A DNA stretch of 64,000 bases from assembly GCA_973895155.1 (NCBI GenBank), contig OZ316897.1:1576515-1640514 (forward strand), read 5' to 3'. Below, one piece after another: positions 6,056 through 53,029 of this stretch. The first letter of the stretch is position 1. Every line of letters begins with the position of its first letter. The notes under the pieces are model-generated. The model saw only the letters and a list, made by a program, of their open reading frames with translations. It was not told where the DNA came from and made no database searches. Made by a program: the position numbers and the translations under genes. This DNA comes from Marsupella aquatica (Eukaryota; Plantae; Marchantiophyta).

Positions 6056-7140
6056 GTCTCATTGCCCACAAGTCTCCCCATGCTAAGTCCTCCCCGGATG
6101 GCCTATCCGGGCCTAGACCATAAGGGAGCTCGGCGTCGGAGTCAGCAACGCCGGAGCTAAGTGTTAAGGTAGTCGAGTTCCGCGACTAACCTCTAAAGAC
6201 CTAAATTTGTTCCCTGTAAGAGTTAATGAAAAGCGAATTGGTACTAAAAAGAACAAATAAGATGTTGATTTGGCATAGCCTCGCCAAGGAGTTCTCTCTC
6301 CAGAGGATTGATAGTAATCAATGCACAAAAACTAATAATTAAAGAACGACATGGAAAAGAACTAGTAAGAATGTCTTTTCAATTGACTCATGAGAAGAGA
6401 TGATGCAAAATGACGATCCCCAACAGATCAACAGGATTCTGGATTTCTAAGATTCAAAATGCAACAGAGCTCATAACATGGTCGAATTAGAATAGACATC
6501 AAACATTAACTAGAAATTGACATGGAGATCTAGTTATCAAACCAAGAATTCTTTCTTGTCAACAATTGGTGACAGTACCAGAATGCTTGAATTGGTATCT
6601 TCTCACACAAGGATTTCTAGATTGTCAAATTGATAACTTCTCAATCAAATTTAGATGATTACTCATGGGAAAGGAAACATTCCATTTCGACTACTGGAAC
6701 ATCAGGAGTTCAATGCTACCTAGAATCCATATGAGTGATTCAAATCAAAATCCAACTTCAAAGTATGATGGCAAATTTTCTAAGTATTAATTTCTCAACA
6801 GGAGAAGGAGTCTGCAGTTCTACTCACAACAGGTCAAGGCTCAACAGGAGCACCTGAGGAGGAGCTTCTATGCTTCTAACAAAAACTGAGAACTAAGGAA
6901 AAAATGGATCTGTGTTCCTCCTAAGATGCACAAAGGAAGGATCCCAAAAGTCACAAAGTGTCATTTCCGGGTTTCCATGGAAGAAAAAGTAACTGTCAAT
7001 CAAAATCCGGAAATGAGAACAAAGGAAAATCCGGAAATGGATGTAAGGTAAAATCCGGATTTTGATTTCTGGTTCTACTACTAAATCCGGAGTTAGATCC
7101 TAGTTGGATCCGGAAATGCTAACTAACTAACTAAAAACTA

Positions 7141-8825
7141 CTAAGCTACTGGAGAATTATCTTCTACATCTACTCTAACTGACTCAAATGTAGTATCAAC
7201 TGGACTAGCAGGTTTCAGAGAAGGAGGTGTCCCTAAACTTGCAGTAGCCTCCAAGTCCTTCAAATCAAAATGTGAACCACGTGCTGGACTAATAGTTGGA
7301 GGTGACACTGACGGAAAACGGAACTCAACCTTCTCAAATCCGGGTGGGGTGCCTCCTGCTTCATTTTCATCTCGAAGCACCGGAGAAGTTCCAGATTCCG
7401 GAATCCGGATTCTAGAAGAAGTCAACATGGACTTCGCATCCAAAATTACTTTCTCCATCTGATCAAACGCTCCTGCGATCTTCTTGGCAAAGTGGTTATT
7501 GCACTCAATAACCTTGGCAAGGGTGCCTGGGTTGCCTGTCGCTAAATACTTATCTATCAGGTTGGCTTCCAACAAGCCCAAGGCTGGTACATGAATAGCC
7601 TCCTAAACACTGGTAACTGCAGCATTAAGTAATTTCTGGATCTTCAGGTGTTCCTCCAACTTCTTCTGTGCAATATCTAATTGGTCCACCAAAGAGTCAA
7701 TCTTTTGTTTGTCCTTGAAGGCCTGATCCTCCAAGTCCCAGATCCGCTTCTTAGCCTGACTCTTAATCACCATGTCCAGAGTGGGAACGATGACAACCGG
7801 ACTGCAGTTGAGCATCTCAGCAACCGTCCCAACCAGATCCTCAAGTTGCTTCGTCTTTTTGGTCGCACTCTCCACGAAAATCCGGACATGCTCCAACTCT
7901 GTTGATGCCGTCCACTTTGAACTGGGGGTCACACCTGGAAGACTTCCTCTACTTTCCGGTCTCCGGATAGGTTTTGGATCTTCAACTGGATCCGGTTCCG
8001 GACTCTGTACAAATCTCTTCTGCGTCCTGGGAGGTCGCACTTCCACAACCGGTTCTTCTTCTGATTCAGTCCCCTCAGATGGTTGTCGATCCGGATCTCT
8101 GAGTTGAGCCAACATGGCCTGATTCTCATACTCCTCCGCTTCTTCATCTGTAAGAATCCGGCCCATCGCATAAAGATTGGCTAGATAGCAAGAAAGGGAT
8201 GTGGGGATCTTCAAATGAAGATTCTAGACCTGGTTGGCTATAACTTCCTCCAAAACTTGGCCTAGGAAATCTTCTTCTCTCCTATGTAAGAAGCAGCAAT
8301 CGTATTACCAATCCGGATTGTAACTCGTCGAGGCTTGGCAGGGGAAAGAAGTGGGAGCAAAAAGGACAGGATGTCAAAAAACTCATCATTACAGCACTGG
8401 GACACCTTCCAACCATCTTTCGGATCAACTTCTCCATCAAAATAGTTATCCGCAAAGTCATTCTTAGAGGTCAAGAAGCCTTCTCCCTTCAAAGGCACAT
8501 CCAAAAGCGACGAGATAACTGCCGCGGTCCATTTTTCCGGTTTGGCTCTGATCAAATTCGGAAATTCCGAAGCAAGGGTTGTGCAATTTTGGACCTCCTT
8601 CATGAATACTGCACTCTGATATCCCCATGGCAACTCCATCAACTTTGCACAACCCATGGTCTCTAGGTTCTTTTGTAAGCGGTCCTTCCATGCCGAGTCC
8701 GTGGGAATCTCCGGTCGTAGTGGCTTTTCATTCACAATGACTGTCCGCTCCTTGGTTGTCCGCTTTGGTAGCGTCCGGATTCCGGATTTGTCCGGGGCAA
8801 AATCCGGGTCCTTTCTCTTCACCAT
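7141..8825 (-). pseudogene. Element-A ORF: gypsy-accessory (Transposase_32/PMD-like) domain plus coiled coil
   Basis: ORFs 8262-8900, 7603-8214 and 7141-7581 join through three TAG stops and one frameshift near 8255. MG..KLMELPW, GWKVSQC, FLLPLLSPAKP and PTSLSCYLANLY align with the ORFs at 17469-19952 and 46222-52758. Confidence 0.7.
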
Positions 8826-9272
8826 GATTAGGAGATGGAGAGAAAGAATCCAAATTAAAATCCCTTCAAAATCCGGAATTATCAAATCCGGAAATCTCAA
8901 TCAAGTTGCAAACTTCCCCTCTCAATCGAACGATCACCCACTTCCCCCGTATCCACTTCCTTTCAACTAATGCCTCAAAACGGCAGCCTTGTCTGACTCT
9001 AATCTCTCTTGTGATTACTCGCAAAAGATTTCCGCAGTAGTTTGGTGGTGTGAGGAATGCTCGGTCTGGCGTGGTCTTAAGAACTTGATTGCCAACTTCC
9101 GATCTCCGGTCGGACGTCAGACTTATGGTTTTAATATTCATTCTCCCACACCTTCTCTCATGGCTCAACGGTGCCGTTACTTAAGAGTTTCAAAAAGGGT
9201 GTTATCCGGATATTTCTGGATTTCATACTGCAATTTGCTTTTTATGGTCCTTCCCGGTCAAATTATACTCTG

Positions 9273-12200
9273 TGTCACGTCGTAGGCTTCGGCCTTAACT
9301 CAGACTTCAGCTTAGACGGGCACATCCCTCGTAAATCTGAGGGTTCGGGCAGGAAGGGAAGCACGTAATGCACCTTATTCTCGTAAACTAGCGCTAAGTG
9401 CGCATACTGCTAAATACGGACACCTCCTAGGTATGGTTTGTGTTCCGCCGCCGGAACATACCTTAGTCGATAGCAGGATCGACCCCGGCTTAAGGGCTTC
9501 TAAGCCTTCGTGCTGTCCGCCTTCGATCCGGATTCGATGATACAGGTCCTCAACCCGTGCTCGCAACCACTTACCCGCAGGCTGCACCCTGTGCACGTCT
9601 CGGGTAGTGCGTTCGGCCCGGCGCTGCCACCCATATACGAGAAACCCACACACATATGCGCACACATGCATACAATCTCGATTTACACGAAGGAAAAATG
9701 ATGGGAAAGGATTTTACTACAAAGGGAACATATGCGTACACTTAGTTGACACGACAGCCCTGGAATGCACAGGTTCAAGGCCGAGGGTGCACACTACAAC
9801 GGAGCCCGGCTCCGCACTCGCCCGACGAGCTTAGTCCTACCCCCTCCCCTTGGTACTCTGTCATTCCCAGAGGTCGGGACTCCCCGCATGTCCCGCGGAT
9901 GTCCGACTCTGAAACTAAAAAACCCCCCCCGCCTCTACCGAGGGGTGCACTAAATACTAAGAGCCGAGGGACGGGGTGTCCTCTCGCCGAAGATTCGCTG
10001 ACTAAGGTCCTAACTAAGCTGACAGTCAGGCCGGAAAACAACTGTGTCTTATTAGAAGATCCTAATCTACGCAGGCTGGACAGCAGGGCAGCGCTGCTGT
10101 ACCTAAGGCAGGTGCCTGTCCCAAGAGCCTGACTAAGCCAATCCTAATCCTAATCTATTCCTACTCCGCCGCTAATGCCTGGCACGCTTGCCAGAGCCGC
10201 CCGAATGGGAACGGCCATCCCGCTGCCTTCGAAGCCTGTCATTGTCCGCTTTGAGGAGCTGGACCTGGTCCAGCAGAGATTCGTTCTCTCGCCTCGCCGC
10301 GTCCGTCTCCTCTGCTGCCTCCTGACATGCCTCCTCCAGCTGCTAGGCGTCGCTCGTCAGTTTACCCGCCAGCTGGTCCTGCTTCTCGGCCTCGGTTTGG
10401 AGCCGCGCCATCTCGGCCTGTAGCGTGGCTATCTCCGTCGCGTCCCGCTGGGCTCGCTCCTCGGCCTCCTCCAGGTCTTTCTGCCAGGTGACAGCTTGTT
10501 TCTTCAAACTGTCAATCTGGTTCCGGAGTCGTGTAATCTCGGCCTCGTTCCCAGCTTTGGCCTGTTCGGCTAGGGCGATAAGAGCGTACGCCTTTGCTAA
10601 CAACTCATCGGCGGCTGCAACCTTGGGTCGCAGTTGCAGAAGCTCAGCCTCTTGAGCTGCCACTTCGTTCTTTAGGTACACGGACTCCACCCGATACCGC
10701 TCTATCCTCTGAAGGGCCTCCGACTGGGCCCGACCTGCCTTTACGGCGGCAACCAACTCCTGATTGAAGAAACAGGCTACCTTCCGGGCCATGAACTCCC
10801 CGGTATCCCGGGCAATTTGATGAGAGAAATCTCCCAGAAGCCCGTTCAGAAACGTACCCTGTACGAAGAGTTCCGGGTGGTCCAAGTTGTGCCTGTCCGG
10901 ATTTGGGCACGGGCAGACATCAACACGCGTAGGGGCCGGGGCAGTGACGTCCAGCCCTGGGGACATAACGTGGGAAGGGGCTAGAGTGTCCTCCTGCAGC
11001 GATGTCCAGTTCTCCGGAATTGCCACCGGCGGGTCCTTGGGAGACCCGGGTTTGGGTAATACCTCTGCCGTACCAACTTCTGTACTTAGCCCGGCTAGTT
11101 GGGTCGCATCAACGGTTGCGACGACCGACCCCTCCGGCGCCTCCTCGGTTACGATTACAGCTATTTGTGGAGGTAGGGTGGGTGAAGCTGGCGTGTCCAC
11201 TGGACTTCGGGCCTCGGGTTGGGGCCGTCTCTCCAATGCCGGAAAAACCCACCTAGCTGGGACCAGCTTTGTAACGTTGATGCGGGGAAGGGTTCGTCGA
11301 TCAAACCGGGCGTACCACTCAAGAATGATTTCGATGTGGCTAGCGAAATATGCCTTCCCGCCAATGTACAGCGTCTTCCTTCGCCGCTCCATCTCTTCAT
11401 GGAATTTCTTAGCGAAGTACGACGCCCATTTCCTAGGTTGATAGTTCTCGACCTGGATAACCTGGGCGGCGGAGATCTCCCCCCGGGGTTCCATCATGTG
11501 GAGAGCGTACCTCTGGAACTCCAGCCGCTCAGCTATCTCGGGCATGAGGCAAGTCCTCATCACGAACCCGTTGTCTACTGACCCCTCTGAGGGAAAACTT
11601 GAAGATTGGTACTTGGCCCCCTTGCCCCCGGGAGCCCGTGATTCGACTCGATGGTCACCTTCGGGTAACCCGAAGATCATCTTGAGCCGTTCTTCTGTGA
11701 GGGACATATTCCTTCCCCGCAGCCGAGTCTGTTGACGTACGTCGTCATAATTCTTGACGAATTCTGTCATGTCCTCCCCGTAGTACCTGCAAGTGTTCCA
11801 GGGGAGAGAGGTGAGGTGCTCAAATCCCTGAGTCTTCAGGTACACCGCATGCTTGGGATGGAGGATGTTGCTATGAACGTTTTCCCCCATGCGATGCATC
11901 GTCAGCTTGGCTACGGCTACCGTGGCCAACGGTAACCCGGACGCAGTGGCAGATTCCTTCCTCCTCTTTCCCCGTGACTGACTCGGGGAAGGTGATACTT
12001 CCCCATCCTCCCGATCGGGCCTGGGGAGTGCCACTGCGGTTGGTAACGGGCCCGGGGCGGCCACGGTCACTATGTTGTCTGCTGGGGCCGCTCCTGGGGT
12101 CAGAGCAGGGGGTGGGGACGATATAGTGTCGGCCCCCCGAGCGCTTGTTCCTCTGGGCCGCCTGGTCAAGGGTGGGGTAGCCTCGTCGTCATCGCTAAGA

Positions 12201-13298
12201 TCCACAGCATTGATGACGGAGCGTACCTGTGCTGGCTGGGTGATAGGTGGTGGGGTTTGGCTAGGCTGCGGTTGAGGCTGAGGCTGAAGCTGAAGCTGAG
12301 GTTGAGGCTGGGGTTGCATGGGCACGGGTACGGGTACGGGTACGGGTACGGGTGAGTTGGTCATGTTGGTTGATGGCCGAGTTCCCATGAAGCTCTGCAG
12401 GTGCTGGTAGAAGTTCTCCGAAGCGAGTGTGGACGCCCTTGTCGAACGGTTGGTACTGGACTCGCCGTTAATGACAGCCCGAACCTGGGCAAGGATGTGG
12501 TCGAAGTGATGTCGCTGCAGGTCGATTGTACCCGAGATATTGAAGACCTCGTCCGGAAGCCGAAGCAATGCTTCCCAGAACCCGATATATTTGTCTCCGT
12601 TGAAGAAGTACCCAGATACCTCAGCTGGTCGGTAAAGCTTGCTCTGAGACGGGTAGTCAAAGTTAAGGACGTAGTGGTGTTGTCCTGCTAGACGGATGGC
12701 TCTCTCGTATTCGCGTTCGATCTCGTATCGGCGCGGGTTGGCGTGTTTCAATGAATCGGCCAAGTGCCTTCCGGTAGATAGGAACTGCGTCCAGAATCGA
12801 ATGGCCGAGCTGGAGAGGATCGTGTGCGACATTCAGAGGAGATAGTAGTGGCGACCTAGCGAGAACGAGAGAGCTGGGGTCGAAGCTGGCGCGCGGACTG
12901 ATGGACTGGTGCACTACAAAGGGTTGGCTCCCTTTTTATACTTTGAGGGCTTGTCGATCCCCGACGTCTCCTCGACGCCCATAGGTTGAACCGCTCACGC
13001 TTGTGGTGTACCGGCCACTCCGCCGGTCTGAGTCAGCGTGCGTCAGTGGCCACTTCCTTAAGTTCGTTATACGGACCCGAGGGAGGGGCCCCTCCACGCT
13101 CGTAATCCGGGTGTGCGAATAGCGACCCGCCGCCAGCCCGAACCTGAAGTCCCCCTTATTGCCTAATGATGTCCTACCCCTAATGATTACCTAAATACTG
13201 TCGTTATGCTAATAATAGCGGCCTAAGACCCACCTAACGCGCGTGCCGAGCGCAGTTAGACTGAATCACTCATTAACCGCCGTACCGGCGGCGTCACA
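9273..13298 (-). mobile_element. Gene-carrying solo-LTR-like element (4026 bp) nested in element A
   Basis: Termini TGTCACGTCG...CGGCGTCACA; flanks CTCTG/CTTTG; TATA-like TATAAAAAGG on minus at ~12940; conserved hairpin at 9443-9456. Confidence 0.85.
10343..12832 (-). CDS. 829-aa protein: PQ/PV repeats, Transposase_32/PMD-like domain, C-terminal coiled coil
   Basis: Uninterrupted ORF. GFEHLTSLPW..EFVKNYD..LT..LKMIFGLPEG..NGF..RTC..PEIAE..EF.R..LH..PRGEIS aligns with 47779-48582. The coiled-coil frame continues past the TAG to ~10172, so the stop may be premature. Confidence 0.75.
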   Translation of the reverse strand: MSHTILSSSAIRFWTQFLSTGRHLADSLKHANPRRYEIEREYERAIRLAGQHHYVLNFDYPSQSKLYRPAEVSGYFFNGDKYIGFWEALLRLPDEVFNISGTIDLQRHHFDHILAQVRAVINGESSTNRSTRASTLASENFYQHLQSFMGTRPSTNMTNSPVPVPVPVPVPMQPQPQPQLQLQPQPQPQPSQTPPPITQPAQVRSVINAVDLSDDDEATPPLTRRPRGTSARGADTISSPPPALTPGAAPADNIVTVAAPGPLPTAVALPRPDREDGEVSPSPSQSRGKRRKESATASGLPLATVAVAKLTMHRMGENVHSNILHPKHAVYLKTQGFEHLTSLPWNTCRYYGEDMTEFVKNYDDVRQQTRLRGRNMSLTEERLKMIFGLPEGDHRVESRAPGGKGAKYQSSSFPSEGSVDNGFVMRTCLMPEIAERLEFQRYALHMMEPRGEISAAQVIQVENYQPRKWASYFAKKFHEEMERRRKTLYIGGKAYFASHIEIILEWYARFDRRTLPRINVTKLVPARWVFPALERRPQPEARSPVDTPASPTLPPQIAVIVTEEAPEGSVVATVDATQLAGLSTEVGTAEVLPKPGSPKDPPVAIPENWTSLQEDTLAPSHVMSPGLDVTAPAPTRVDVCPCPNPDRHNLDHPELFVQGTFLNGLLGDFSHQIARDTGEFMARKVACFFNQELVAAVKAGRAQSEALQRIERYRVESVYLKNEVAAQEAELLQLRPKVAAADELLAKAYALIALAEQAKAGNEAEITRLRNQIDSLKKQAVTWQKDLEEAEERAQRDATEIATLQAEMARLQTEAEKQDQLAGKLTSDA

Positions 13299-13376
13299 CT
13301 TTGTTAACCACTAAAAGTTGAATTGTTTTAAATTTTTGCACTTTTTAATTTCCTTAGTTATAACCATGGTATCACA

Positions 13377-15816: not shown

Positions 15817-16011
15817 TGTTCATAAAATTGTAAGCTTCTTTCTCCATTCCCGTCAATTTATAATAGTTCTGTGTTGTTTTGGATACATGCACCTACTGTG
15901 CTGGATTTCATTTCATCAGGTCAGAATGGAATGCGAGGAGACGTTTCAAACTCCCAAGGAGGGTTGTCAGACACAACATAGAAACACCAGAAAAACCTTT
16001 TGTTCTTCCCT

Positions 16012-19000
16012 TGTAGTATCACACTAGGGACATAAATAAACATTTAAGATCCAAAACTCGGTATTCGTTCCCATGGAAGAACATGTAAGGAATGATTTTC
16101 TATGATTTAGCACTTTTGAATGACTTAAGTAACAAAAACACAAAGGTGAGCCTTTTACTATGGTTGCTCAGCAAAGCATAGATTTGAATGTCTGTTTGAC
16201 ATTGTAAATAAAATTAACAAATGGAAGCAATTAACAAAAAACAATGAAAATCTTGAGGTATGGTGAGGGAGTTAGGAAACAACCAAGGTGACTCCTCACA
16301 CATAACTTCATTTGAGATGATTTAAGGTATTGAACTTGTAAGAACATTTCTGGAATGGAATACTTTACTGGGATGGTTGTTAGGGTGCCGTTTACACATC
16401 TCAACCTTTCCTTCCAAGGTACTAAGTTAAGATTAACAACCAATCACTTCAGCATCCAATCGGTACTTTGTGTCACAAATATCAAGCACCATCATCAACA
16501 ACTTAAAGTCACAGGTAATTGGGTGATAACATTCTTTGCACCTCGTGCACAAGCAATGTTATGCCAAAAACATATGCATCAAGAACTCAAGAATGTATAG
16601 CCTTCACCAATTAAGGAATCTATCTCTACACATTCAAAAGATTCATCAATCACAAAGTTTTACTTCTCTGGTCTGAAATCTCAATCATTCAAACACAAGG
16701 AAGGGGGAGAAATTCTCTGTATTAAGTACTCATCAACAACATAGAGTGCTTGCTACAAATGGAGGTAACAAAGTTGCAGACTTCCAACTGAGCGCTCATG
16801 AAATTTCTTCACACTAAAAGTGACAGAAATTCAACTACATATAGGGTAGGAGGAACCAAAGGGAAAAAGATAATGAAAGGACATGCCCTTTCTTATCTCA
16901 AGGATCATGGGTAAAAGTAAAATAATAAAATCGTACTACAAAAGTACCCAAGGTTCACTGGAATGTTCCTGGAATGAAAAGCTAACTAAAAGATATTTCA
17001 GGTGTTAACTATTGTAAAAGTGAATTTGTGGTAAAACTAATGAATAAGGGTTTTATCCAAATTTTAATTTCTAAACTAAAAATCATAAAAAGGTGAGACT
17101 TTGCTGAAGTGGTCTCTGATGTATATTCTTTATGCTGGCAAAATATGAGACTTTTCTGAGGTGCCGAAGTGTCTCAATAAAATAGTTAAAAGTGTTAAAA
17201 ATGTTACAGAAAACGAAAATCGGAAAATTTTCTGAGTGCTGGGCGCATGCGCGCATAAGCTCATTAGCGCTTTCGCGTCTAAGCAGAAAACAACAAAACT
17301 AAAATATTTTTAATTTTCAAACCACAGGTCGGTTTGAGTTGAGATTTTGAGGGTAGGTTCTACTACGCAAGGGCTATCTCCTGGAAAAGTATGAGACTTT
17401 TTTTACTACTTTAAATATTTAACTAAAATTGCGTAGATCTATATAACTTAACTATGGTCGCAGTAGAGCTAATCTTGTTGGAGTAGTGTCGTCGGATCTG
17501 GTTGCTGTGCTCTGGTGTAGGTGTTGGTCTGCATAGCTTCTCGAATAGCATCCATATCTTGAGTGTGATGCCGATAGAAAGGTAGAGACTTCCGCTGTCG
17601 TTCAAGATCAAGTACGGGAAGAAGCCTCCGATGTAGCATGGTATTTACCTTGCTAGCTTGCATGTAAATACCAATGAAGTCGTAAGTGCAGCAAGTAGCA
17701 TGTTAGTTTTGAGGAAACTTGGCCATGAATACCTCGGAGTCTCTGGCAAATGGTAGGAATGAAGTAACTCTAGGTAGGAGTTCACGCCACTTCAGAGTAT
17801 ACTCTGTTAATCGCTGAGAAGTAATGTTATTCCAAATCCTCTGCTTCTCAGGTATTGGAGTAACAAATCGTTGGAGGACAACAGGCTGGACTGGAGAAGC
17901 TTCATGATTCATCTGAAATCTCCACTTGGTTTGTCTTAAGAAGACAATGATGAACTCCAGGACATAAGCAGGTAGATTCCCGAAATAAGCTAGAGCCAGA
18001 TCTCCATTCTCCAATATAAGGTGTCCAACGAGGATCATGACAGCGAGAACAGGGCAAAAATACTCAGCCTCTGTCCAGATCTCATCCATCTCTGCTATCT
18101 CCAAGCGAGTGACATCTAGCAAATGAAGTTTCAAGATATAAAGGCATTCAACTCTCTTTTTATGGTAATATTTCCAAAACTCTAAAATAGGAGGGGATCT
18201 AAGGTCTGAGACTCTAACAAACTCAGCAAACTGTTTAATACTTTCCTGAGGGGTTTTTGGATCGATATGCAGAGTAGGGATAAAATTGACTTGGCATGAC
18301 TTGTCTTGACTGGGTGGAAGAGTGTCAGGGAAAGAAATGGCAAGATATGCATCTGTAGGAGTGATCTCAGGTTCTGGAAAACTAGGGAAAAGTTGGTTTG
18401 GTTGGTTTGAAGGACTATAAGGAGAAGTAGGTGAATGGCTAGAAGGAGAACTAGAATAAGAAATGGGAGAGCCTGATGCTGAGGTATGATAGCGAACTGC
18501 AGAATAAACTTGCTTGGTGTTGCAGCCAAACATCTGAGTGAATCTGTGGACGAGATCTTCACAGTATTCCAAGTGCTGGTCGTGGCTTGAAATACGTGAT
18601 AATCGATACATAACCTCATCTAATACTTCGATCAAATGACCGGGATCACACTCCAACATCTTGCAAATCTCACCTACAAGATTAAAGTAATACTCAGCTG
18701 AATGTCGGGGTGAAGTATTCACAATTTGTTGAAGATCTGTTCTCAGTGGTGGTAATCTCTCATCCATTGGGGATTCCATGATAGTGTCGGGATTCTCGAT
18801 ACCTATCAGAGAAAGGTGATGTGTAGTTCTAGGGGCTTTTGATTGTCCTTCGGTGAATGGATGTTTTGATTGGTTAGGACTCTGGGTGGGTGAATAAATG
18901 GAAGTGGGACTGTATGGAGTAATACAATTATAGGCTGGCGAGGGTTGAGTAACAAAAGCAGTTCTTAATCTATCTACAATAGGGAGGATTTCTTCTGGAT

Positions 19001-20480
19001 CACAAGTCAGCATTCTAGATAAACTGTCTACTATATCCTGATTAAAAATAGCCTTCCCATCATCAATCAATTTCTCTGGATGATTGTGTTCACTGGCAGG
19101 GATAACAGGGAGAGGAGAGTGGTCGGTCGGACTACTATTAGTATGGTAAGGTGTAATCTCAACGTGAGGATTAATATCCTCATCCATAAGTTCCAGAGCA
19201 GGTGGTATAATTTCTTGATGACTGGCTTCTGATGTTTCCTCCATTCTCAGATCATCGAGTCTCGAATCAGCCTCTGAATGTTCCACATCTAATTCCTCCA
19301 ATAGTGCAATCCTTTCAAGCTTTTCCTGTGGGAGTAGACAGTCTCCATACCAGTAAAGCTGATTGAGGTAAGCTGGGAGGTATGTAGGCTTTTCATTCTG
19401 TACTGCATTGATTTGACTGAGGATGGTGTGCCTCAGTAACAATCCCCAATTAACTTCAGCAAGTCCCTTCCATGAAGTAACAAATGTGTTCACCAAAGAT
19501 ACAGGTACCATGTAAGGTCGAGTGGGATGGAAAATCGGCACTAAAAACTCAAGGATAATTTTGAAGATATAATCAATACATTGATTTAGCTTCCATCCAG
19601 CTTTCGTATTTCTCGTCCCAGCGAACATTGGATCAGATAGAGTACTCTTTCTAGATTGTAAACCACAGCCTTCTGATGGACAACTAAAAGCGTCGGCCAA
19701 AAATTCCAAGTCCCATTTTTTGGGATCTGCTCGAATAGTCTCCTAAAAAGCTTCTGGAATCTGAGACTCATCAGCGAACTCGCGCAAGTAGGTAGGACAC
19801 ACAGAAGACCACGGAATGGATAGAAGTTTTCCCAAGTGCATAACTTCTAGAGCATCGGTCAATAACATCAAATCCCTTTCCAGTGCGGGGTACTTCACAG
19901 GTACAGCTTTCAGAACAAGGGAATCGCCACTCATCTCCTCCACGCCCGCCATGGCAAGTTGTAGTCACGGTTCTTGGAATTTGATTCACTATTGCCACAG
20001 AAATCTAAGTCGCAAAACGTTAGGGCGTATTGGCGTGATAGCGCATGAGCGTATAAATGCCACAGCGCTCAAGCGTTTCTGCGTATGGGCGTTAACGTCG
20101 AGGCCTTTGGTAGAAAACAGGGAAGTGAAAATATTCGTCGCGAGCAGGTGGTCTAGTAAGTCACTCTGTCACTCCCTCCTCGTTGTCAACGGTTACTTTC
20201 GGTTTCCGGTAGGGTGGGGTGCGTATAAGCGTCTGGGCGCATCAGCGCATAAACGCCTATGCGTCTCAGCGCGTAAGCGTATAAGCTGCTACTGTGACTC
20301 TGATTTGACATGGCTGTAAAAGGAACTAATTTTAGGAGACTACAGGGATGTACTTGAGGATGGCTTAACTACTCTAATGTTCCTAATTAATATAGATAAC
20401 CCGAGGCGAATCACTACTTATCTCAAAAAGTTGAAAATTTTAAAGTTTTCACAGAAATTCTGAATTACCGCTATATCACA
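16012..20480 (-). mobile_element. Gene-carrying solo-LTR-like element B (4469 bp)
   Basis: Termini TGTAGTAT...ATATCACA; exact TSD TCCCT (16007-16011 and 20481-20485). Confidence 0.85.
17469..19952 (-). pseudogene. Element-B ORF (~820 codons), Transposase_32/PMD-like domain plus Ser/Pro-rich region
   Basis: 19743-19952, 17703-19709 and 17469-17663 share a frame separated by single stops; LLSIPW, GWKLNQC, LEFLVPIFHPTRP, VNWGLLL and PTYLPAYLNQLY motifs. Confidence 0.75.
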
Positions 20481-21163
20481 TCCCTCCTATGCAGAGAGCC
20501 GCAAGAAAAGCCGAGAGTACAAGGACGCTTTGTTGGGAAAACAAAGGTCTTCGGTTATGAAGGGATGTTGAGAGGAAGTTCATTAAACATCCTTATGTTG
20601 ATGACTTCTCCCGTAGCCAGTACATAGATGATGAGACTGTGTCCATAGACAAATCCCAGAGTACAAATTCTAGTTCAGAATCAGAATCTTTAGAATTGTG
20701 AGACGTATTTAGGAAGTTTTGGTGGGATTTTTTACCAGTGCCAGGCGCTAGGATAAACTTGTATTCAGTTCCTCTGTTGTGGGTCCGTATAAATTGATGT
20801 CGCATTATTTGTGTTTTTTACAAGTGCCTGGCGCTCGCCAAATGATGATTCATAGTTGGAATATTTCCTTCTTTTATTGGTGTGTCATTTCTGTTTGGTC
20901 TTTGTCGTGTCCTACCAACGGTCATCATAATGAAACAAACAGTAGGCAGTACATAGTATAATATATGTTTTGGATAGCAACGGCCATTTGGTTTGTGTCC
21001 ATTAGTTTGCCAAAGCAAACCCCCATGGACTGTAAGTGCTAGTGGATACCCCAACCTTTCACGAACAATTTCTTCACGAACGACAGTTTTCGGACCTTTC
21101 GCGGACGAGGGTTTTCGCATTTTGTGAGAGGGGAAGTTGACATTTGTTCTGGCCCTATTCAAC

Positions 21164-33420: not shown

Positions 33421-35439
33421 AATCACTTTGCCACTAAAGATGTTCTAATTCACACTACACTGTTTGCCCTGTATTTATAAAAATTATTTGTACATTTGGG
33501 CAAGAAAATTTGGACTTTGAGGGCTGAAAGGTGTACATTTTGAGATCAGTGTACATTTGGGAGAGAGAATTGGGCATTTGGGAACTTATTAAGTAAATAA
33601 TATTTAGGGTTCAAACTATAAATTATTGAATGAATAAAACAAAATGACAAAGTTCAACAAAGGCAATAAGTGCTTAATATCATTCTTTATTAAAATTATA
33701 ATAATAACCTACGACTCCAAGGTTGTGACTAGAGAGACCAAAACCATTGCATAAAGTGTACACAAAGAGCTGGCCAAATTTTCTCAATCATATACAAAAT
33801 AGGAGAGTTTGCACGGTCTTGACCGATAGTCCTGACTTTTGCCCCAGAAAAGAGAGGCATGTGATAGCGAGTAGGCTCAAAACTTGGAATGGGTACAATG
33901 GGTGAAATCAAAGCAAAGAGTTCCTCAACAACTCTCAACATTGTGACAAATTTTTTGGGAAAGGTTGATCTCATATAGACCCACAATCTGTCCACCAAAG
34001 TCCATTGTCCTTGAGTACTGAATTGAGGAGCATGGGGGTGGGCAACTGCTTTAGAGTTGAGAGGGGCAAGGCCCGGGCAAGGATGGGTTCAGGATAATTG
34101 TATGGAGGATTTGGGAGCACTCAACAGGTAACAGGGAAAACAGGCTTACAAAAGGGGGAGGGGAGTCCTTGAAGCCTTTATTAAACCCTAAAACCCTCCT
34201 TTATTAAATATCCAAACTACGTTGAACACTCTTGGCCATCATAAAACCAAGGCAAAGTGTCAATTTTGGACTAACCCTCTAGAGATCATATGGACATGCA
34301 TTGTAATCAAATGACAAGTCAACGTTTGTGGATATACTCTTGGACAAATTTAAGGATCTTAGGGGGAATATTCAACCCTCGATCCATAATATTTTGTTCT
34401 TTCATACCCAACTTAAATCCATACATTGCAGACAAAGCATATTGCCATGCAATAGAGACATTATTAAAAATAGGATCAATCTCTTGAATCAACTTTGGAA
34501 CAGGATGGATACTTTTGCACTCCCAGACCTCCAGCATAATTGCGAGTAAAGTAGAAACTTCCCAATTCTGAACTTGCCTAGCAACCTTCAAAAAAAAGTG
34601 CATCCACATCTCAATCCACATCCTTGTGTGTATGTCCAACCATGAGAAAGACATCTGCACCATTTCAAAGACTGTGATGCCTAGGCAAGAATCACTAGGA
34701 CATTCAAGGGTTAAAACCTTGTTGTATATACTTATCTACATGCATAAGCTATCAGGTAAAAGGGAGAAAACTTAAACATTTAAGGGTACCCACAGAACCC
34801 AAGCCGAGGCCGGAAGTGAGGGTGTAGCAACAGCGGCTTTGGGTACGATTAGGGTTAGGGCACGCTTATGCACCAATCATCGGCAGTAGATTGTCAAGCG
34901 ACCACATCACAATGGACAGAAGGGGGTAAGGACTGGCTTGCCATAATCAGTGGCTCATTCTCCGCTGCCGACAATCATCCTTCAAGGGGTGAACAAGTTG
35001 GCGCTTTATTAGTGAGATGCTTTTGAATAGGGATGCACATGGAGAATTTGGGTATGGGGAGCCCTTCCTGTGTGTGTTAGGGAATCCAAGGGGACAGTAG
35101 GAGGCCTTGAGAGTTCCAATAGAGGGAGGAAAGGTCCAAGGCAGTAGGGTTCACGAAACAAACTGCACATTACCAGGCACAAATTTGCACTCGGGCCTTA
35201 GTTCCTTTATAGTTGTGTGGGACTCTCAAGTTGCACATTCCCAGGTTCCAATTTGTAGTAGGGCCGCAGTTCCTTTATCATTGAGTGGGGCTCCTTGGTT
35301 TTTGGCTCTTAGATCTTCCTGGGGTTTTTTCCCGTGTTTTCTCCCCTTATATTGCGTCTCTCACATTTGGGATCCCGTCTCCAGGTTTGGCATTTGTTTT
35401 CCATTTATTTGGTCTCTAGCATTGGGTTAATATCTCCCC

Positions 35440-45084: not shown

Positions 45085-45241
45085 TTAATCTTCCTCCCCT
45101 CATCTTTCTAGTACAACTCCTTGGGTCCACATACTCCCAAACAAGATTAGCTTATCTTTCTCCCTCATCTTTCCGTTACAACTCCCTGGCTCCACATACT
45201 CCCATAACAGATTAGCTTATCTTTCTCCCCTCATCTTTCTA
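45085..45241. repeat. ~64-bp tandem repeat (about 2.5 copies)
   Basis: CCCTCATCTTTC..TACAACTCC..TCCACATACTCCCA..AGATTAGCTTATCTTTCT repeated. Confidence 0.8.
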
Positions 45242-47334
45242 TTATAACTTGTAATTAGGTGATTATGAAGGGTTGAACTATAGAACTCCTGCTGGTAATC
45301 ACACATCAAAAGGCACATTGTATTCATTGATTCAAATAAAAATAACTAGGGTTATCACGGTATGCAGGGATGTCGTACAACTTACATGGCATATTTGAGA
45401 AACTCTAAAACCCTATAGAGCCCCCTATAAATTGTAAACTTAATAGTTTTGTAAGCTACTCTTAAATGGTAATAAGGTGTTTTCCAATAAGTTTCAAAGA
45501 CGGCGTGGAAGAAACATGTTGAAGGCTTGGACGGTCCGCTGTAAGCATGACCTCCCGCCCCTAACCCTAAACCCTATATCCGCAACCCTAGTTAGCCCCC
45601 TCTCCCCAAAAAGCGACCTCAAGGACGGTAACCAAGTGACATCCCTGACGACCCTGAAGTAAGGCCGTCCAGGACGGCTCTATCCTCAACCCCACCGGCC
45701 GGCGACCTACGATGATGTTTTCCCCTATGGACGTCCATATCCTTCAGGTGACGTCTTGGACGGCCCCGCGTAAAGCCGTTGGGGACGTCCATCTTACAAA
45801 AACTAACACCGAGGGACGGGCTCGATGACTTGGTATTTTCTTTCTTGAAGGATGTCCATGGTGGCCGGTAGGGAAGGCGCCAGCTCCACACTCAATGCGC
45901 ACTCAGTAGGCCACCTTTTGGACTCAATTTTCTTTCTCTATATCCGCAGCTGCTTAGGGATGGTGCACCTGAAAACTGAACAAAGTTTGTTAAGTGGTTA
46001 AGGCATACTGAATCGGTGAAGTTCAGAGATTTCTTGAAGTTCAGGAAGCTATGGATTTCCGAACTTCGCCCGATTAGTATTCTCTCACCTGTTCATCTTC
46101 TCAGTTTCTTTCTTCTCCAGTAGCATCGTGGCTACACCAGGACCTTGTCATTGGCAACCTGAAATCCCAATGTTTAGCCATTCAGGATAATTGCATAGTC
46201 TTCTCTGATTTTCAGATTCTATGGCTGCCCGAGTTCTACCAGTTAGTAAGAGCATCAGGGTGAATCTACCTTCTGACCCTGATGGTTATTTTCAGCTCTT
46301 AGGCAACCTAGTTGAGATGGGATTGAGTCACTTGCTTTTTCTCCCATAAGACATGGTGCATGGATCCCTCATTGCAGATTTTCTTCGGGTACCGAGCCCT
46401 GGTACTTTTAGAAGTTCCACTAGAGGTTCGACCAATGTTTGCACTCCTGCTGTAGTTGCCGAGGTGTATCAGTTGAGTTAGGAGGGAGAGAGATTGTATT
46501 CCGTCGGGGAGGACTTGACTGCTCGCTACTTTTGAGGTGTCAGAGATCAGAGGACTGGTTGGAGGATTGATCAGTGCAGGAACCGGGAGCTAGCTCATTT
46601 GCTCCGATTCCTTGTACCCATTTTTCATCCTACCAAGCCCATTAGGGTTATGGTTTACTTAGCCAGTTCCATCATTGCTTCATGGACCGGCAAGAGGAAG
46701 ATCAACTGGGCCCTAGTTCTTTCAAAGGTCATCGCCAAGCAGGTTGCGGTTGTCACTACTACTAGCCAAACTTATTTGACACCTTACTTGGTGCATGTCT
46801 ACTAGACGAGACATTGTTTGTTACCAGTGGAGCTGAGCAATTGGAGGAGGAGAGTGAGACACTCTGAGCTTCCACAGCCAGAGTGTGTGAGAGAGCTGAC
46901 TCCACCACCTACGACATCACCGACACCCCCAGTGCAGCAGGCGACACCACCAGAGGTACCAGGGACGACTTCTTCCACTTTTGTGACTTCCACCTCTTCC
47001 ACTTCATGGACTGATTTTATTGGTGATGCTGAGAGACTAGCTAGTGTGGCTGGTTTCAACCAGCATTTGGTTGTCAAGGCTACACGACTTTTGACTTGTA
47101 CCCCATCCCAGTTACTTGATTGTATTCGGAGTTTGATTGCGAATCCTCGTTCTACTCCACTTCTCCTTGCCTCACCCTTAGTACCTTCCCCCCAGCCTGA
47201 TATCCCTATGGATGTTGAGTGTGATGCCTAGCCAGGAATCACTTGGCCAGTTAAGTGGGTAAAGCAGGAATGCACCCTGGAAACACCTTAGGATAGAGAC
47301 AAAACAAGGAAAATATAAACAATTAGGGGCGACT

Positions 47335-47706
47335 ATGGAACTCGGGCCGAGGCCGGAGGTAAGAACGCTGGGGGTGAAAACTCGATTAGGGTTAGGGCGC
47401 GCTAAGCGTCGGCGGCTAGGAAGGATCAACGGGAGGAAGGACCGGAAGAGGAGAGGGGTAAGGAGCGCTTGCAGGAGACGGTGGCTCATTTGCGAGCACG
47501 AACTAGGCAGACGACTACGGGAGGCCAACTACTGTCAGCTGCTTAGGCAAGCACTCGGGGAGGGAGTAGATACCAATGATCGACCTAAGGAGGGTATGAG
47601 CAACGTCAATCAAGCGGCACATTTCTGGGGATGCCTGTTCGAACGGGCAACTGAGTACATCAAGACTTACAAGGACGAAGAATCAGAAAGGGCAGCTAGA
47701 GAATGA
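47335..47706 (+). CDS. Small Arg-rich ORF upstream of the element-D large ORF
   Basis: ATG about 20 bp after the TATA-like box; its stop overlaps the next ATG (ATGA, 47703-47706). Confidence 0.35.
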   Translation: MELGPRPEVRTLGVKTRLGLGRAKRRRLGRINGRKDRKRRGVRSACRRRWLICEHELGRRLREANYCQLLRQALGEGVDTNDRPKEGMSNVNQAAHFWGCLFERATEYIKTYKDEESERAARE

Positions 47707-50700
47707 TAGGAGCTCGCTCGATTATGGGAGCTACAGAAAACGGCTTTCTTAGGAGGCGAACTCATCAAGGCCGAGTTCTTGTGGACGCCTACTTCCAATC
47801 AGCTCGACGATCTTCTGTTTTGCGAAGACAGAATCATCGGCATTCGAGAGGCCATCAAGAACTGCAACGACATACACTGGGAATTGAAGGGTAGCACAGA
47901 AAGGTGGACCCAGGCAACAGTGCTAGGAGAAACCTCCACGGCAGCTGAGATGAAGAGGAAGGGAGTCGTCAACGATGAAGCCACCCCGGCAAAAAGAATG
48001 AGGTCGGCGGCACCAAAGAAACCAGTCGAACAGCAGAGCAGGAAGCAGAGCGAAGCCGAAGAGGAGGAAAGCGACCCCATCAACGCCATTCCAACCAGGG
48101 ATGACACCTGGAAGGGCTGGGCGGCAACTCTACCAGTGGAGGTGCAACTACATTTTGCACGGGAGGAGGATGCATGCTTTACGGCCATGCAGACCAAGAG
48201 GTACCAAGGCTTCATGGCCGGATCCGGCTTGGAAGCCTTTGTAAGATTACCGTGGCTAAAGCCGGAGGTGCCGGATTCAGACCTATTAGAATTCGTGGGG
48301 TCATGGGAACCCGAGACCAATTGCACGAGGATATATGGGAAGGATTTCTATCTTACTCCCAAGGTGATTGCCGAAGTGTTTGGCTTGCCGATAGGCAATA
48401 AGACCAAGGTTGATACCAGGAAGACCTTGCCTGACAAAGAGTTCCGGTCGTTCCCCAGACCATCAACGAAGAATGGCTTCTTCCGGACCACCTGTACCAA
48501 CCCGCACATTGGAGAGATGATCGACTTCTTGCGGGTGACCATGCATTGTAACTTGCCGAGGGCAGAGATCGGCAAGGCATAGGTCTATCTGGCAGAGAGA
48601 CCAGACCCAAGCCGGGACTACAATGGGTACCTCCTCAACCAATTGAAGAAGATCTTGAAGGAGGAGCAACAGGTAATCGGCATGGGGAGCGTGTCGCGGC
48701 TTGGCTATCACATGTCGCTGTTGTGCCGGTATGCCAGAGGTCAGACCTTTGCCCCGGTACTTCCCCTACAGGCAAGGGCACCAGTTCCGGAACAGAGACA
48801 GGCAATGGAGAAACCCAAACCGCCCGACAGTCCTACAATCGACCAGGTGTTTAGACCAAGAACGGAGGACTTGTCGATGCAGCAACCAGGCATGCAGAGT
48901 CTGCTGAAACTGCTGGAGAAAGAAAAGAGATCGGCATCGGCAACGACAATGACAATGACAACGGCAGCGGCAACAATGCACGACATTGTTCCAGAGGTAG
49001 GCCTAAACCGGCTAACAAAGGAGAACCCCTTTACTGGAGTCAAGGAGACACGGAGGCCGGAAAACAAGCTGGGAGTCCGGATGTATGTAGGAGCCTCTAG
49101 TCCCGAAGCTGAGGAGAAGCAGGCCGTAACTCCCGGCCACAGCAAGGAGAGTAGGAGATCAACACGGAGACCGGAGGAGGAACCAAGACCGGAGGAGGAA
49201 CCAAGACCGGCGGGAGGTGAAGCCGTGTTCACGCCAAAACCAGGAGACGAGCGGGAGGAGCTGGTAGTCCAAGCCGAGGAGGAGGCGGTGGAGGACTACA
49301 GCAATGATAACTCCGGCTATGGGTCGGATCATCATGTTCCAGGAGTAAGGACCTGTGGTCGCTTCATCCCCACGCTCCCAAGAGTAGTCCGAGGGGACCC
49401 CAACCAGCAGAGCAGCCCCGAGTCTCCCCCGCCAGATGTCGCTCCCCCGAGCTTTGACGGCATAAAATAGACGGTGCAAGAATTTCAGGAGCGAATCAGG
49501 GAGGAAGACGAGGCAGCCCTGGCTAGAGAAAAGGATTTACCAGGAGGGGAATGGCCAGAGAACATCAGGCGGCTAGCCGAAAAAGGAAGCAAACCTCTAG
49601 CCACGATTGAAGAGATCCGCAAGACGGCTTGGGAGCAGAGGCCGCGATGGGGGATGCCGATCACTTCTACCTATTCCACCTACGTTAAGAATAGAGCAAT
49701 GGAGTATGGTGAGATGTGTGGGGAACTTGCGCTCGGCATCTTTGGGGAGGAATTGGAGGTAGGACCCTTTTTCCATAGGGAGCAGTTGGAGAAGCGCCAA
49801 TTGGAAGAAGCGGTGGCCTTGGAAAGAAGCAAGAAGGACGAGGTCATCCGTCGGCTTAGGGAAAGGGAAGCCAAAATCAAGGACCTGAGGGCGGCCAAGA
49901 AAGCCCAAGATGAGCTGCGGATTAAGCGGCATGAGCTAAATATCATGCAGGGCCAGTTGGATACCGCACAATCTGATAACCGGATGATCGAGAATCTACT
50001 GACGAGGACCCAAGGAGAGTTGGCCGATGCGATCAAAGAGAGGGAGAAGTGGAAGCAAGAGCTGAGGAATGCAGAGGAGGCCCACATAACAGCCAACAAC
50101 CGGGCCATGGCGGAGACCCAAAGAAAGGAACGGGCGTTGAAGGGGGAGCTCAAGAAAAGCCGCGGAGCCCTTGAACAGAAGGAGGCCGAGTTAGGGAAAT
50201 CCTATCAAGGGATTATGGCACTGCAGCAGGAGCTTGCGTCCCTAACGGCCAGCTTCAAGGCCGACCTAAGGGAGAAGGACGTGATGCTCGATCAGACTTA
50301 TGCCAAGATGAACCAGATGGAGTCTGTCATCATTGCAGAGCTCGACAAGGAGCTAAGAGCAACCCGGGAGGAGAGGGCTACCTTGAAGAAGGAATTGTAG
50401 GAAGCCCATAGGGAGCAGGAGGAGGCCAAAAACGAGCTGGAGGGGGCACGTAAGGACCTGGATGAGACCCAAGAGGAGTTGGAGGAAATCACGAGGAAGA
50501 TGGAGAACCTACAGCGGCGGGCCGACAACCAAATAGAGCGGCTGAAGAAACAAGCCGCAGTATTTAAATGCTTAGTTGCAGCAGGTTCACCTTCCGTTGG
50601 GGCGAACCAGTTACCAGGGGTGGTAATTGCCGAAGGACAAGCCGCACCACCTGCACCAGTGCCAGAAGTAAGTGGGAAGGGGAAGGGACCAGCTGCCGAG

Positions 50701-51045
50701 CCAGCGACGAAGAAGAAGCGGAAACCTTCAGGGTCAAGGAGTAATACGACTCCACGGGCCGAGGTGACCGAGGAGGTAGACCCGGCAACGACCCCAGACA
50801 AGATCAAGGCAGAGGATCCAACTACCCTAGGGGAAGGGGAGGCCGAAGCAATGAGTGAGGATGAGGCCGAAGCCGGGGGTGATGCCGAGGCCGGTGTCGG
50901 GGCCGAAGCCGAAGGTGGACCCAGTCAGGCCGATGGAGAGTTGACTCAGTCAAGGGCAGGTAATCTGTCAGTAGACGGGCCAACGGCAGTGGCTGAGGAA
51001 GAAGCGATGGGGGCGTCCACTGAGGGACAGACACCGCTGCCATGA
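47703..51045 (+). pseudogene. Element-D ORF (~1100 codons): Transposase_32/PMD-like domain plus long coiled coil
   Basis: 47779-48582, 48643-49470, 49474-50400 and 50479-51045 share one frame separated by three TAG codons; homologous to 10343-12832. Confidence 0.8.
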
Positions 51046-52855
51046 CGGTGGTGCAGGGCCGCTCCTTTCAAGGAGGGCGGACGTGGAGGGAGGAGGCGTG
51101 AGTGGGCAGGGCGGGCTCAGATCTCTAAGTTTAGGATTAGGATCAGGACCAGGAAGCGGCCCTGACACTTAGCTTAGTGGGATTGTGGTTCCACTGGTAA
51201 GAGCAACACTTGTACTCCTGCCTCGCTGTACATAGGTAGATCCAGGCAGGTAGATTACTGTTAGGTAGATTAGGCTTACGCTCCAAAGAATTAGGCAGAT
51301 CCGCTACCAGGATAAGTACCTGGGCTGCGGGGAGCTCAGGGCCTCTTCTTTAGCAAGTTTTTAGTTTGCACCAGCCGGGCTGGGATCAGGTAGTAAGAGA
51401 AGCTCTCGGTTAGTCATACTGTGACCTTGTGTATATTCATGTTTCCTCATGCCTAAGAGCTGAATAGAGTTGGCCTCACGGCTTAGTTCGCAGAGCTTGT
51501 GTATGAGATGTACTGTATGTATGGCAAGTGCATGGTATGACTCAGTCAGAAGGAGTCATTTTACTATTTGTGTGTCGCATTAACTTGTGTGAAGAGTGCC
51601 CACATCAACTAATAGGAGAAGGAAAGTAAGCAAGGGAGTGAGAGTTGGATGTGTCAAGCTGAGAGAGGTCTTAGCGGCTTAACCAAGCCTATTGGGGACC
51701 ATTCCGGCGGCGGAATCCAAATATACCCAACCAGAAGGAGAGGAGGACAAGGGAAGGCCTAGAATAGGTCGGCTTCATATCTCATGACCCGATGAAGGAT
51801 CTGTCCAGTATATGTGTGTAAATTGTTAATAGTAGTAGTAGAAGGAGGTTAGCAACGTCCCATGCCGCTAAGCCGCGAAAACGGCCTCGCCAAGCGTGAA
51901 ACCTGCGGGAATCGGCTTGTGCTGGGGGGTTTCTTGGGTTTAGGGAGCCGTGGGACGCACCACATTGAGGAGCCACAGGTACCCATAGTTGATGCATGTA
52001 TTCCTCCTACATGTACACCCACCCCCGAGCACCTTCCTTCTCCCATCCCCGAGCCTTTACCACCTTCACCTGTACCCTCTCCCCTTTCATCCCCTTCCAC
52101 TCAGGAGGCCACTTTACCACACTCTCATGTTCTATCTCCCTCCCCTACCAGGGAAGGAAATGAACCCATTCCCGAGCCTAATCCGAATACTGAGACATTA
52201 GAGCCCCCCAGTGTACCATTTCTAGCTCCTACACCTTTGATGTCTCAGCATCCTATTGTCTCTTCTACTGCCGATATTGAGCCCCTTTTTGCTCTTCCCG
52301 CCGCGTTTGCTACCATGATCACTACACTGATTGACACACGCATTCCTCTTGCACCACCCTTACCTCCACTGATGTTTGGTTCCCACTCGCTCCCTTTTGT
52401 ACATACATATGACATGGTTCTGAGTTATCCTGGTATTTTATGGCTTCCTATCGACAAGCTGCGCATGCCAGAGATTGAGGGTCCGCAGTTGTGGAGTTGG
52501 GTTTATCATTGTAGAAAGGTCATTGCACCTATCCCTCTTCCAGCCCCGGACATTCCATGGCCTTCAGATTATTATGTTTGGATTGGACCGGATGGACATC
52601 CCATCCGGAAGATCAGTGACCCAGATCTGATGAGACTCCAACAGGATATTTTTTGCCGACAGTATTTGAAGGGCAATAGGGCCAAAGGGAAGTTAGCACT
52701 TGGATTTGTAGCAAGTCTTCCCCTGATTGTAGTTGACCCTCCTCCTATTGTCTTATGACATTTGTACCTCATTTGCTAAACTTATTAGTGTATTGAGCTT
52801 TTACTACTTCACTACTTGCGTAGTTGAACATGCACTACCCCTCATATTTGTATCA

Positions 52856-53029
52856 CTCCATACCGTGATGAAGTTCGTGAATTTTGTAATATCGCTGTCC
52901 ACACGGGGATATTCCTCTTGCTGTTCATGGACCCTGCCATGTTTGGGTGCTCCATACCGTGATGAAGTTTGTGAATTTTGTAATATCGCTGACCGCACGG
53001 GGATATTCCTCTTGCTGTTCATGGACCCT
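52856..53029. repeat. 94-bp tandem repeat interrupted by the MULE insertion
   Basis: CTCCATACCGTGATGAAG at 52856 and 52950. Confidence 0.85.

Follow-up and report, generated by a model that had tools for sequence, protein, structure and literature searches.

Putative solo LTRs holding a gene for a predicted VANC-like protein in the liverwort Marsupella aquatica

The formation of solo LTRs is regarded as the host's means of disarming retrotransposons. Protein-coding genes are known from the U3 of LTRs, as in sag of MMTV and nef of HIV, and are thus duplicated at both ends; these are animal retroviruses, with far shorter LTRs and proteins unrelated to those described here. In plants, the non-chromoviral gypsy elements Athila, Ogre, Retand and Tekay have accessory ORFs (Athila ORF-1, PF03078; Transposase_32, PF20167; PMD, PF10536; TRP28), which are described as internal (PMC6317226, PMC11963269, PMC7264820). 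What the extra ORFs of Athila, Ogre and Tat do is a long-standing question. The Retrosat2, RIRE3 and RIRE8 elements combine LTRs of >3 kb ending in CGTGACA with abundant solo LTRs and an extra ORF. Yet this ORF0 is described as lying upstream of gag-pol rather than in the LTR, and it is grass-specific (PMC3485330). VANCs are DNA-binding anti-silencing proteins of the VANDAL (MuDR) DNA transposons of Arabidopsis (PMC5735166; PDB 9LNK), called dicot-specific and MAIN-derived in a recent atlas paper (PMC13547354). Their structural kin, MAIN, MAIL1 and MAIL2 (Plant Mobile Domain), work together with DNA motifs in modules that counteract silencing by Polycomb (bioRxiv 2024.09.27.615353).

Here, we analysed a stretch of 64,000 nucleotides of Marsupella aquatica (the window). 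It holds five elements with a large ORF (A to E), an ORF-less unit (G), which the preliminary description had overlooked, and a fragment (H):

2914..5233, forward strand: element G, ORF-less, a 2320-bp TG..CA unit; target-site duplication (TSD) CGGTC/CGGCC
6188..13376, reverse strand: visible part of element A, with B nested inside; LTR F displaces its 3' end at 6187; TCCGG content strongly raised
7141..8825, reverse strand: ORF of A, disrupted by stops and a frame break; of its ~560 codons the first ~187 hold the domain
9273..13298, reverse strand: element B, putative solo LTR, a 4026-bp TG..CA unit nested in A; TSD CTCTG/CTTTG; high copy
10343..12832, reverse strand: ORF of B, intact, 829 aa, with a domain at the N-terminus, the VANC/PMD-like domain at ~residues 327-520 and a coiled coil at the C-terminus
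16012..20480, reverse strand: element C, putative solo LTR, a 4469-bp TG..CA unit; perfect TSD TCCCT/TCCCT
17703..19952, reverse strand: ORF of C, 749 codons, one stop; VANC/PMD-like domain N-terminal
34673..34960, forward strand: fragment H, truncated relative of the 5' end of D
45396..53030, forward strand: element E, split by D; a TIR element displaces its right end; 5' part with a CGTCC cluster
46221..52758, forward strand: ORF of E, in pieces (46221-47219 and 51970-52758) flanking D; 4 stops in the first piece
47220..51964, forward strand: element D, a 4745-bp TG..CA unit within the E ORF; perfect TSD TTGAG/TTGAG; GCCGA/TGCCG-rich
47596..51045, forward strand: ORF of D, ~1149 codons, 5 stops; B-type domain and long coiled coil; start codon uncertain

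On balance we lean towards reading these units as solo LTRs that stem from several Athila/Tat-like families of Ty3/gypsy elements. In such families an LTR of 4-5 kb would hold an accessory gene, whose protein is predicted to have the DNA-binding VANC/PMD fold and would bind a family-specific CpG-containing motif against silencing. The A, C and E units very probably arose by LTR-LTR recombination of full elements, and those of B and D probably did.

The ends of the units partly bear out what had been described. TG..CA termini with a TSD of 4-6 bp are found in three of the five named elements (B, C, D) and in G; the 5-bp duplications claimed for the first three are all present, that of B with one mismatch. 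A and E each have a displaced end. The reported absences hold as well: there is no terminal direct repeat in A-E, no gag or pol Pfam match among the 21 ORFs of the window, and no long TIR in the TG..CA units. Rfam gave no match. The end of A had been placed wrongly at 6162, since contigs set an element boundary at 6187 (109 contigs) and another at 1788 (95 contigs), both with diverse flanks (run X2). Between them lies LTR F, a separate element of ~1.5 kb, followed at 1785 by what we take to be a tRNA-Met primer-binding site (PBS). Its boundary at 6187 implies that A is interrupted at 6188. A shows no TSD (flanks CTAAG vs CCGTT) and its expected left flank is absent from the window. The right end of E was not found before the TIR element that starts at 53031, and the last 80 nt of E match nothing but a local 94-bp tandem.

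One large ORF per element had also been proposed. Such ORFs, of ~560 to ~1149 codons in A-D, do exist, but only that of B is intact and four of the five are broken; B is thus the gene suited to expression. In all five elements the ORF reads from the TG end, as stated, and starts 376-825 nt from it. The TATA-like boxes seen in two elements lie 107 nt (B) and 281 nt (D) before the ATG, and E has one too, at 794 nt; A and C have no canonical box. The ORFs have homologs: a full-length one for B (P0162), a top database match of 808 aa for C (P0006), and P0018 and P0160, members of one cluster, for the N- and C-terminal pieces of E. When the domains of B and C were used as queries, word-seeded searching returned nothing, and it was exhaustive profile search that recovered homologs. 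Scans of viral contigs (A7, P0018, L002 pol) and of prokaryotes were empty.

The proteins have a common domain in two subfamilies, as proposed: A, C and E align mutually at E 1e-13 to 1e-27, and B with D at 3e-17. Mutual alignment across the subfamilies is not significant by BLASTP (E 0.04-0.4), but it is by profile-profile comparison (prob 97.5, E 4.9e-12, 163 columns). For both subfamily models the best structural match is VANC21 (the C domain model has a pLDDT of 95.6), and the domain of both is predicted to have a VANC21-like fold. The suggestion of a chromatin or anti-silencing factor thus gains a predicted structural basis. At gathering score none of the 21 window ORFs matches the Pfam models Athila ORF-1, Transposase_32, PMD or DUF1985. 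Transposase_32 matches 1 of 142 family members weakly (E 0.005), and Atlas gives 0.91-0.93 for A. Foldseek against PDB and viral libraries gave nothing at E<=0.001, and a PDB sequence search only coiled-coil or low-complexity matches, all outside the domain.

The likeness to VANC (PMC5735166) lies in the predicted fold over ~200 residues, the coiled coil, the variable low-complexity parts and, less uniformly, in a short element-specific motif at high density, which is here absent in C. Yet the gene sits in putative LTR retrotransposons of a liverwort rather than in a MuDR element of a eudicot; the units have TG..CA ends, 5-bp TSDs and no long TIR, and a relative has a gypsy pol. Moreover, there is no DUF1985 HMM match, the anti-silencing is here a prediction, and the motifs also extend through coding DNA. 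Unlike MAIN, MAIL1 and MAIL2, these are not host genes and show no Pfam PMD match.

Candidate motifs are TCCGG in A, GCCGA in D and ACCCG in B and G, with CGTCC clustered in the 5' part of E. Enrichment is strong in A, D and the two relatives L001 and L002, moderate in B, E and G, and absent in C; some control sequences are nominally significant in the same test. The motifs with the highest enrichment contain CpG.

The claim that the accessory gene is built into the LTR is best followed in a relative, L002. Here the order is pol, a PPT-like tract, TG, TATA and an ORF homologous to that of A (E 1e-17). This placement right after pol and the PPT-like tract occurs in one of two related contigs and concerns the A/C/E protein type only, to which L002 is tied by protein homology and layout, since non-coding DNA does not align. 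For this type the claim gains support, and the competing idea of single-unit elements without an autonomous partner is weakened. That idea keeps more of its probability for the B/D type, in which neither a link to pol nor a clear PPT or PBS came to light. The L002 pol, of which part is present, has only RVT_1, RT_RNaseH, Integrase_H2C2 and rve. It thus resembles Athila (OTA clade) in lacking a chromodomain or additional RNase H, as do the window units in their 5-bp TSD. But in Athila the extra ORF is expected between pol and the 3' LTR, whereas in L002 it follows the PPT-like tract and TG. Athila, Ogre, Retand and Tekay otherwise resemble our elements in the related domain (by language-model features), the 5-bp TSD and LTRs of up to ~5 kb, but their ORFs are described as internal; here the ORF comes after the PPT-like tract and is retained in solo units. 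Phygy and Selgy differ, being described with a 4-bp TSD and no extra ORF. In C, a PPT-like tract with TG stands ~870 nt short of the 3' end; tracts of this kind turn up by chance within several elements. A 3' LTR beginning at that tract was rejected, as the sequence there does not match the 5' end of C.

In all 4 runs, loose contig ends mark the end of B at 13298 and lead into diverse flanks (14, 26, 12 and 24 contigs; agreement 0.38-0.43), with no clear PPT in the flank consensus. B thus has many insertion sites and is multi-copy. It is a single high-copy unit over its whole length. Read depth, which is not copy number, is fairly even along it.

Might at least the B and D units be something other than LTRs, namely self-contained non-autonomous elements that have short TG..CA termini and that an integrase or transposase mobilises in trans? 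The want of a PBS or clear PPT beside B, its fairly even depth (not a copy number) and the ~7-bp imperfect terminal inverted repeats of B and G would fit. But L002 ties the A/C/E type to gypsy pol by way of a PPT-like tract, CGTGACA closes B and G just as it closes the LTRs of Retrosat2 and RIRE8 (PMC3485330), and 5-bp TSDs are described as typical of Athila and Ogre in PMC6317226; we find this quite improbable. Distinctly unlikely, too, is that deletion or recombination left the units behind from ordinary Athila-like elements with an internal ORF, their motif excess reflecting composition or methylation decay. The ORFs of Athila ORF1, PMD and Transposase_28 do normally lie between LTRs (PMC6317226), and the tract in C would agree with this. 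Yet with a TSD on both sides one expects the first bases of the unit to appear again where a 3' LTR begins, and in B, C, D and G they do not; B is one unit throughout; and control DNA is depleted, not enriched, in TCCGG, while the motif differs from element to element.

A gene inside the LTR could also encode a plain DNA-binding transactivator, or an integration or nuclear-import helper akin to retroviral accessory proteins, countering neither methylation nor Polycomb silencing. A DNA-binding fold and motif enrichment suit any sequence-specific regulator, and regulatory roles have been suggested for extra ORFs, TRP28 of Retand among them (PMC11963269, PMC7264820). Still, it is an anti-silencing factor that matches best in structure, and the motifs highest in enrichment contain CpG; we consider this rather unlikely.

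If the units are gene-bearing solo LTRs, the most likely place for the gene would be U3, with a promoter of its own. R-U5 and the promoter of the retrotransposon would fall in the last ~1 kb, the region common to B, D and the ORF-less G; with this arrangement a strong-stop DNA of 3-4 kb would be avoided. A likely origin would be that the PPT moved to a position directly behind pol, so that the 3' extra ORF of an Athila-type element came to lie inside the LTR. The domain would bind the motif and the coiled coil oligomerise, with loss of methylation or other repression as the effect, as with VANC. The factor could then come from any intact LTR, whether solo or not, and act in trans, also for ORF-less relatives like G. 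With an accessory gene of 2-3.4 kb inside, solo LTRs would remain coding and could act family-wide. Element finders with small LTR-length limits might overlook such elements. Our literature search turned up no description of an ORF within plant LTRs, nor of LTR elements with a protein like VANC; most subscription papers, the per-element REXdb table, Repbase Reports and Steinbauerova 2011 lay outside its scope.

One might speculate, tentatively, that early land plant gypsy elements carry VANC-type anti-silencing in their LTRs, with one protein and one CpG motif per family, solo LTRs still producing the factor and G-like LTRs using it in trans. If so, a function would be assigned to the long-unexplained Athila-ORF1/PMD-A accessory domain, VANC-like anti-silencing would be far older than eudicot MuDR elements, and the question of VANC origin would be reopened. 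The predicted VANC fold and a named candidate motif per family make this directly testable.

We rejected the reading that G or F served as the LTRs for internal regions of the ORF elements. G has its 3' non-coding sequence in common with B, as well as the ACCCG motif, and its empty site is present in 4 of 4 runs.

Our analyses somewhat favour giant LTRs carrying in a putative U3 a gene for a predicted VANC/PMD-fold DNA-binding oligomer with anti-silencing function, and left as solo LTRs. The five gene-carrying elements (A to E), an ORF-less unit (G) and a separate LTR (F) are:

Element A, right end 13376, left part interrupted at 6188: no TSD
Element B, 9273-13298: TG..CA ends, 5-bp TSD with one mismatch
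Element C, 16012-20480: TG..CA ends, perfect 5-bp TSD
Element D, 47220-51964: TG..CA ends, perfect 5-bp TSD
Element E, starts 45396: right end displaced by a TIR element at 53031
LTR F, 1788-6187, minus strand: about 1.5 kb after removal of G and a MITE; depth very high
Unit G, 2914-5233: B-like ends, TSD with one mismatch, no ORF

The TG..CA ends with 5-bp TSDs that the preliminary description gave for three elements were confirmed in B, C and D. It had also placed A at 6162-13376, and this proved wrong at the left. Contigs of run X2 aligned to 1500-20700 revealed boundaries with diverse flanks at 1788 (95 contigs) and 6187 (109 contigs; agreement about 0.35), and next to LTR F there is a minus-strand tRNA-Met PBS motif at 1785. 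Hence, 6162 lies inside a separate LTR that breaks A at 6188, and is ruled out as the end of A, whose expected left flank is absent from the window. Beyond its PBS, LTR F faces no long ORF in positions 1-1775, and might therefore be part of a non-autonomous element; its ends in this copy are AG..CT, not TG..CA. A and C are inserted into a medium-copy host element (13377-16011 and after 20481) with a 459-codon ORF at 14437-15816 that has no Pfam match. A Mutator-like TIR family is represented at 5483-6055, with a 10-bp TSD (CGTCTCATTG), and by a second copy that starts at 53031 and has its opposite end outside the window.

Internal direct repeats, gag and pol had been reported missing, and indeed none of A to E has a terminal direct repeat and 0/21 window ORFs match gag or pol in Pfam. 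In a metagenome scan, 94 stretches gave matches and two of them were confirmed as contigs with a homologous ORF. One, L001, is too short upstream to show what precedes the ORF. The other, L002, encodes RT, RNase H and integrase (best PDB sequence match of its pol: Ty3 Gag-Pol), with coding ending at 2313, followed by a purine tract (2376-2388), a TG (2389), TATATAA (2847) and, in sense, the homologous ORF (3158). Its TG-to-ATG distance of 769 nt is inside the 376-825 nt range of the window elements. The first bases of B, C, D and G are not repeated internally, unlike those of a TSD-bounded unit from a two-LTR element. Together, these observations fit solo LTRs holding the gene within the LTR. 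The proposal of a gene inside the LTR is supported for the A/C/E type by the L002 layout; for the B/D type, no link to pol was found. This layout comes from one informative contig, of an organism other than Marsupella aquatica; its non-coding DNA and that of the window share no alignable stretch, and chance PPT-like tracts occur within some window elements. Beside the L002 layout, single non-LTR units mobilised in trans seem unlikely, even with the B/D type lacking a link to pol. That the units are remnants of deletion is likewise improbable, beside first bases that do not recur internally.

The large ORF attributed to each element is found in all five, but intact only in B (829 aa), those of A, C, D and E being broken by stops or a frame break. 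D is inserted within the reading frame of E, and the N- and C-terminal pieces of the ORF thus split match the database proteins P0018 and P0160, of one shared cluster. The common domain in two subfamilies was borne out: A/C/E and B/D align as profiles with prob 97.5 and E 4.9e-12. Profile searches gave 518 relatives at E<=1e-3; among the 150 matches listed, 145 are nearest A/C/E and 5 nearest B/D. Organism names on four clusters (30 proteins looked up) were all Calypogeia fissa, a leafy liverwort, in keeping with a liverwort as the likely host. Homologs align over their full length (e.g. the database protein P0162 with B, E 2e-85), suggesting that the protein is under selection. Pfam matches just 1/142 family members, weakly, to Transposase_32. 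Atlas scores for A are 0.93 (ATHILA ORF-1) and 0.91 (Transposase_32); for B, DUF1985/PMD leads, with weaker scores than A's.

In the mechanism we favour, the accessory gene would sit in the U3 of a giant LTR and its expression would yield a VANC/PMD-fold oligomer that may bind DNA. Once bound, the protein would shield its own family from silencing, perhaps through demethylation, and solo LTRs with the gene would remain as leftovers of giant-LTR elements. A VANC-like mode predicts that every element is rich in its own short motif, and this was put to test using 5-mer counts expected from dinucleotide composition. TCCGG was observed 46 times in A (expected 4.2), 36 in L001 (8.1), 44 in the L002 pol (6.0) and 34 in the L002 LTR part (7.9), whereas it is below expectation in a 24 kb control (15 vs 23.9) and in C (1 vs 3.2). 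Being common to pol and LTR part, the enrichment argues that both belong to one element. Other words are enriched elsewhere: GCCGA in D (33 vs 9.3), CGTCC in E (11 vs 3.1), and ACCCG in B (26 vs 11.5) and the ORF-less G (10 vs 2.5). In synonymous-codon shuffles of the ORFs, corrected over all 512 5-mers, p 0.003 was obtained for 3/5 window ORFs (A, B, D) and 3/3 relatives; C and E fell short of it, and 1/4 controls reached 0.047. In the B ORF, a GGGTAC tandem gives rise to the top word, and ACCCG ranks next. For non-coding DNA, p was 0.005 in A, E, L001 and L002, 0.02-0.04 in B, D and G (top words of B and D without CpG), 0.10 in C, 0.01 in the ORF-less F and about 0.02 in 2/5 controls. The motif signal is thus strong in the A type and D, moderate in B, E and G, and absent in C.

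Across L002 1-5193 and L001, TCCGG/CCGGA are enriched through pol and accessory ORF despite synonymous shuffling. Such a codon-level bias spanning a whole element, the pol of a retrotransposon included, is unusual in itself. Motif enrichment in general could reflect either selected sites or a shielding of CpG from decay, and either source would imply some sequence-specific binder, for which the ORF protein is a candidate. A regulator devoid of anti-silencing activity, which such a binder might also be, is a less probable reading, though one to be taken seriously.

ORFs residing in LTRs are known from retroviruses. Taken singly, there is also precedent for the domain superfamily, for extra ORFs of gypsy elements, for LTRs of 5 kb and for VANC-type anti-silencing. 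In the literature, of which our coverage is incomplete, we found no description of a plant LTR with an internal gene or of a VANC-like factor in LTR elements. The part of PMC12844716 (2026) available to us terms epigenetic modulation of their own elements by Tork/Athila ORFs uninvestigated, and the available parts of PMC3485330, PMC6431247, PMC12885004, PMC7466625, PMC12859917 and PMC11728184 leave our reading unaltered. As far as the accessible text of three surveys goes (PMC7264820, PMC6317226, PMC11963269), published extra ORFs lie in the internal region, whereas the present one is inside a putative LTR. PMC6317226 gives Phygy and Selgy TSDs of 4 bp without any extra ORF, in contrast to the 5 bp of B, C and D, which Athila shares; in Marchantia, the excerpt of PMC10508981 describes Tat lineages without the extra RNase H. 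The lineage is therefore OTA-like, without assignment to a named one.

B is present as a true multi-site insertion, since loose ends occur at its 13298 terminus in 4/4 runs (14, 26, 12 and 24 contigs; agreement 0.38-0.43), with a drop of about 40- to 60-fold in summed depth across this point. The flank consensus at this end holds no clear PPT, so B is a putative LTR, not a directly demonstrated one. Depth over B and G, which is not copy number, exceeds that over A and C by one to two orders of magnitude. G has an empty site in 4/4 runs, and some 280 nt of its 3' non-coding sequence match B (z 31.7). One contig of run X1 links the G end at 5233 to 10729 inside the B ORF, with a short side of 26 letters; it may represent G inserted into a further copy of B.

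Elsewhere in the window, 53831-63961 holds clustered Pfam-negative ORFs of up to 563 aa together with TTTAGGG runs and tandem arrays of 37, 87, 107 and 158 bp that have a CTCGGCGAGGGTC-like core in common; inverted arms lie between about 57290 and 63960. The region resembles a large DNA transposon whose subterminal arrays would serve as binding sites. A degenerate reading frame at about 31700-32400 resembles, by eye, a LINE ORF1 with a zinc knuckle. The AT-rich stretch 22300-24700 contains degenerate coding-like duplicates (23453-23551 and 24250-24348) and a 154-bp tandem repeat.
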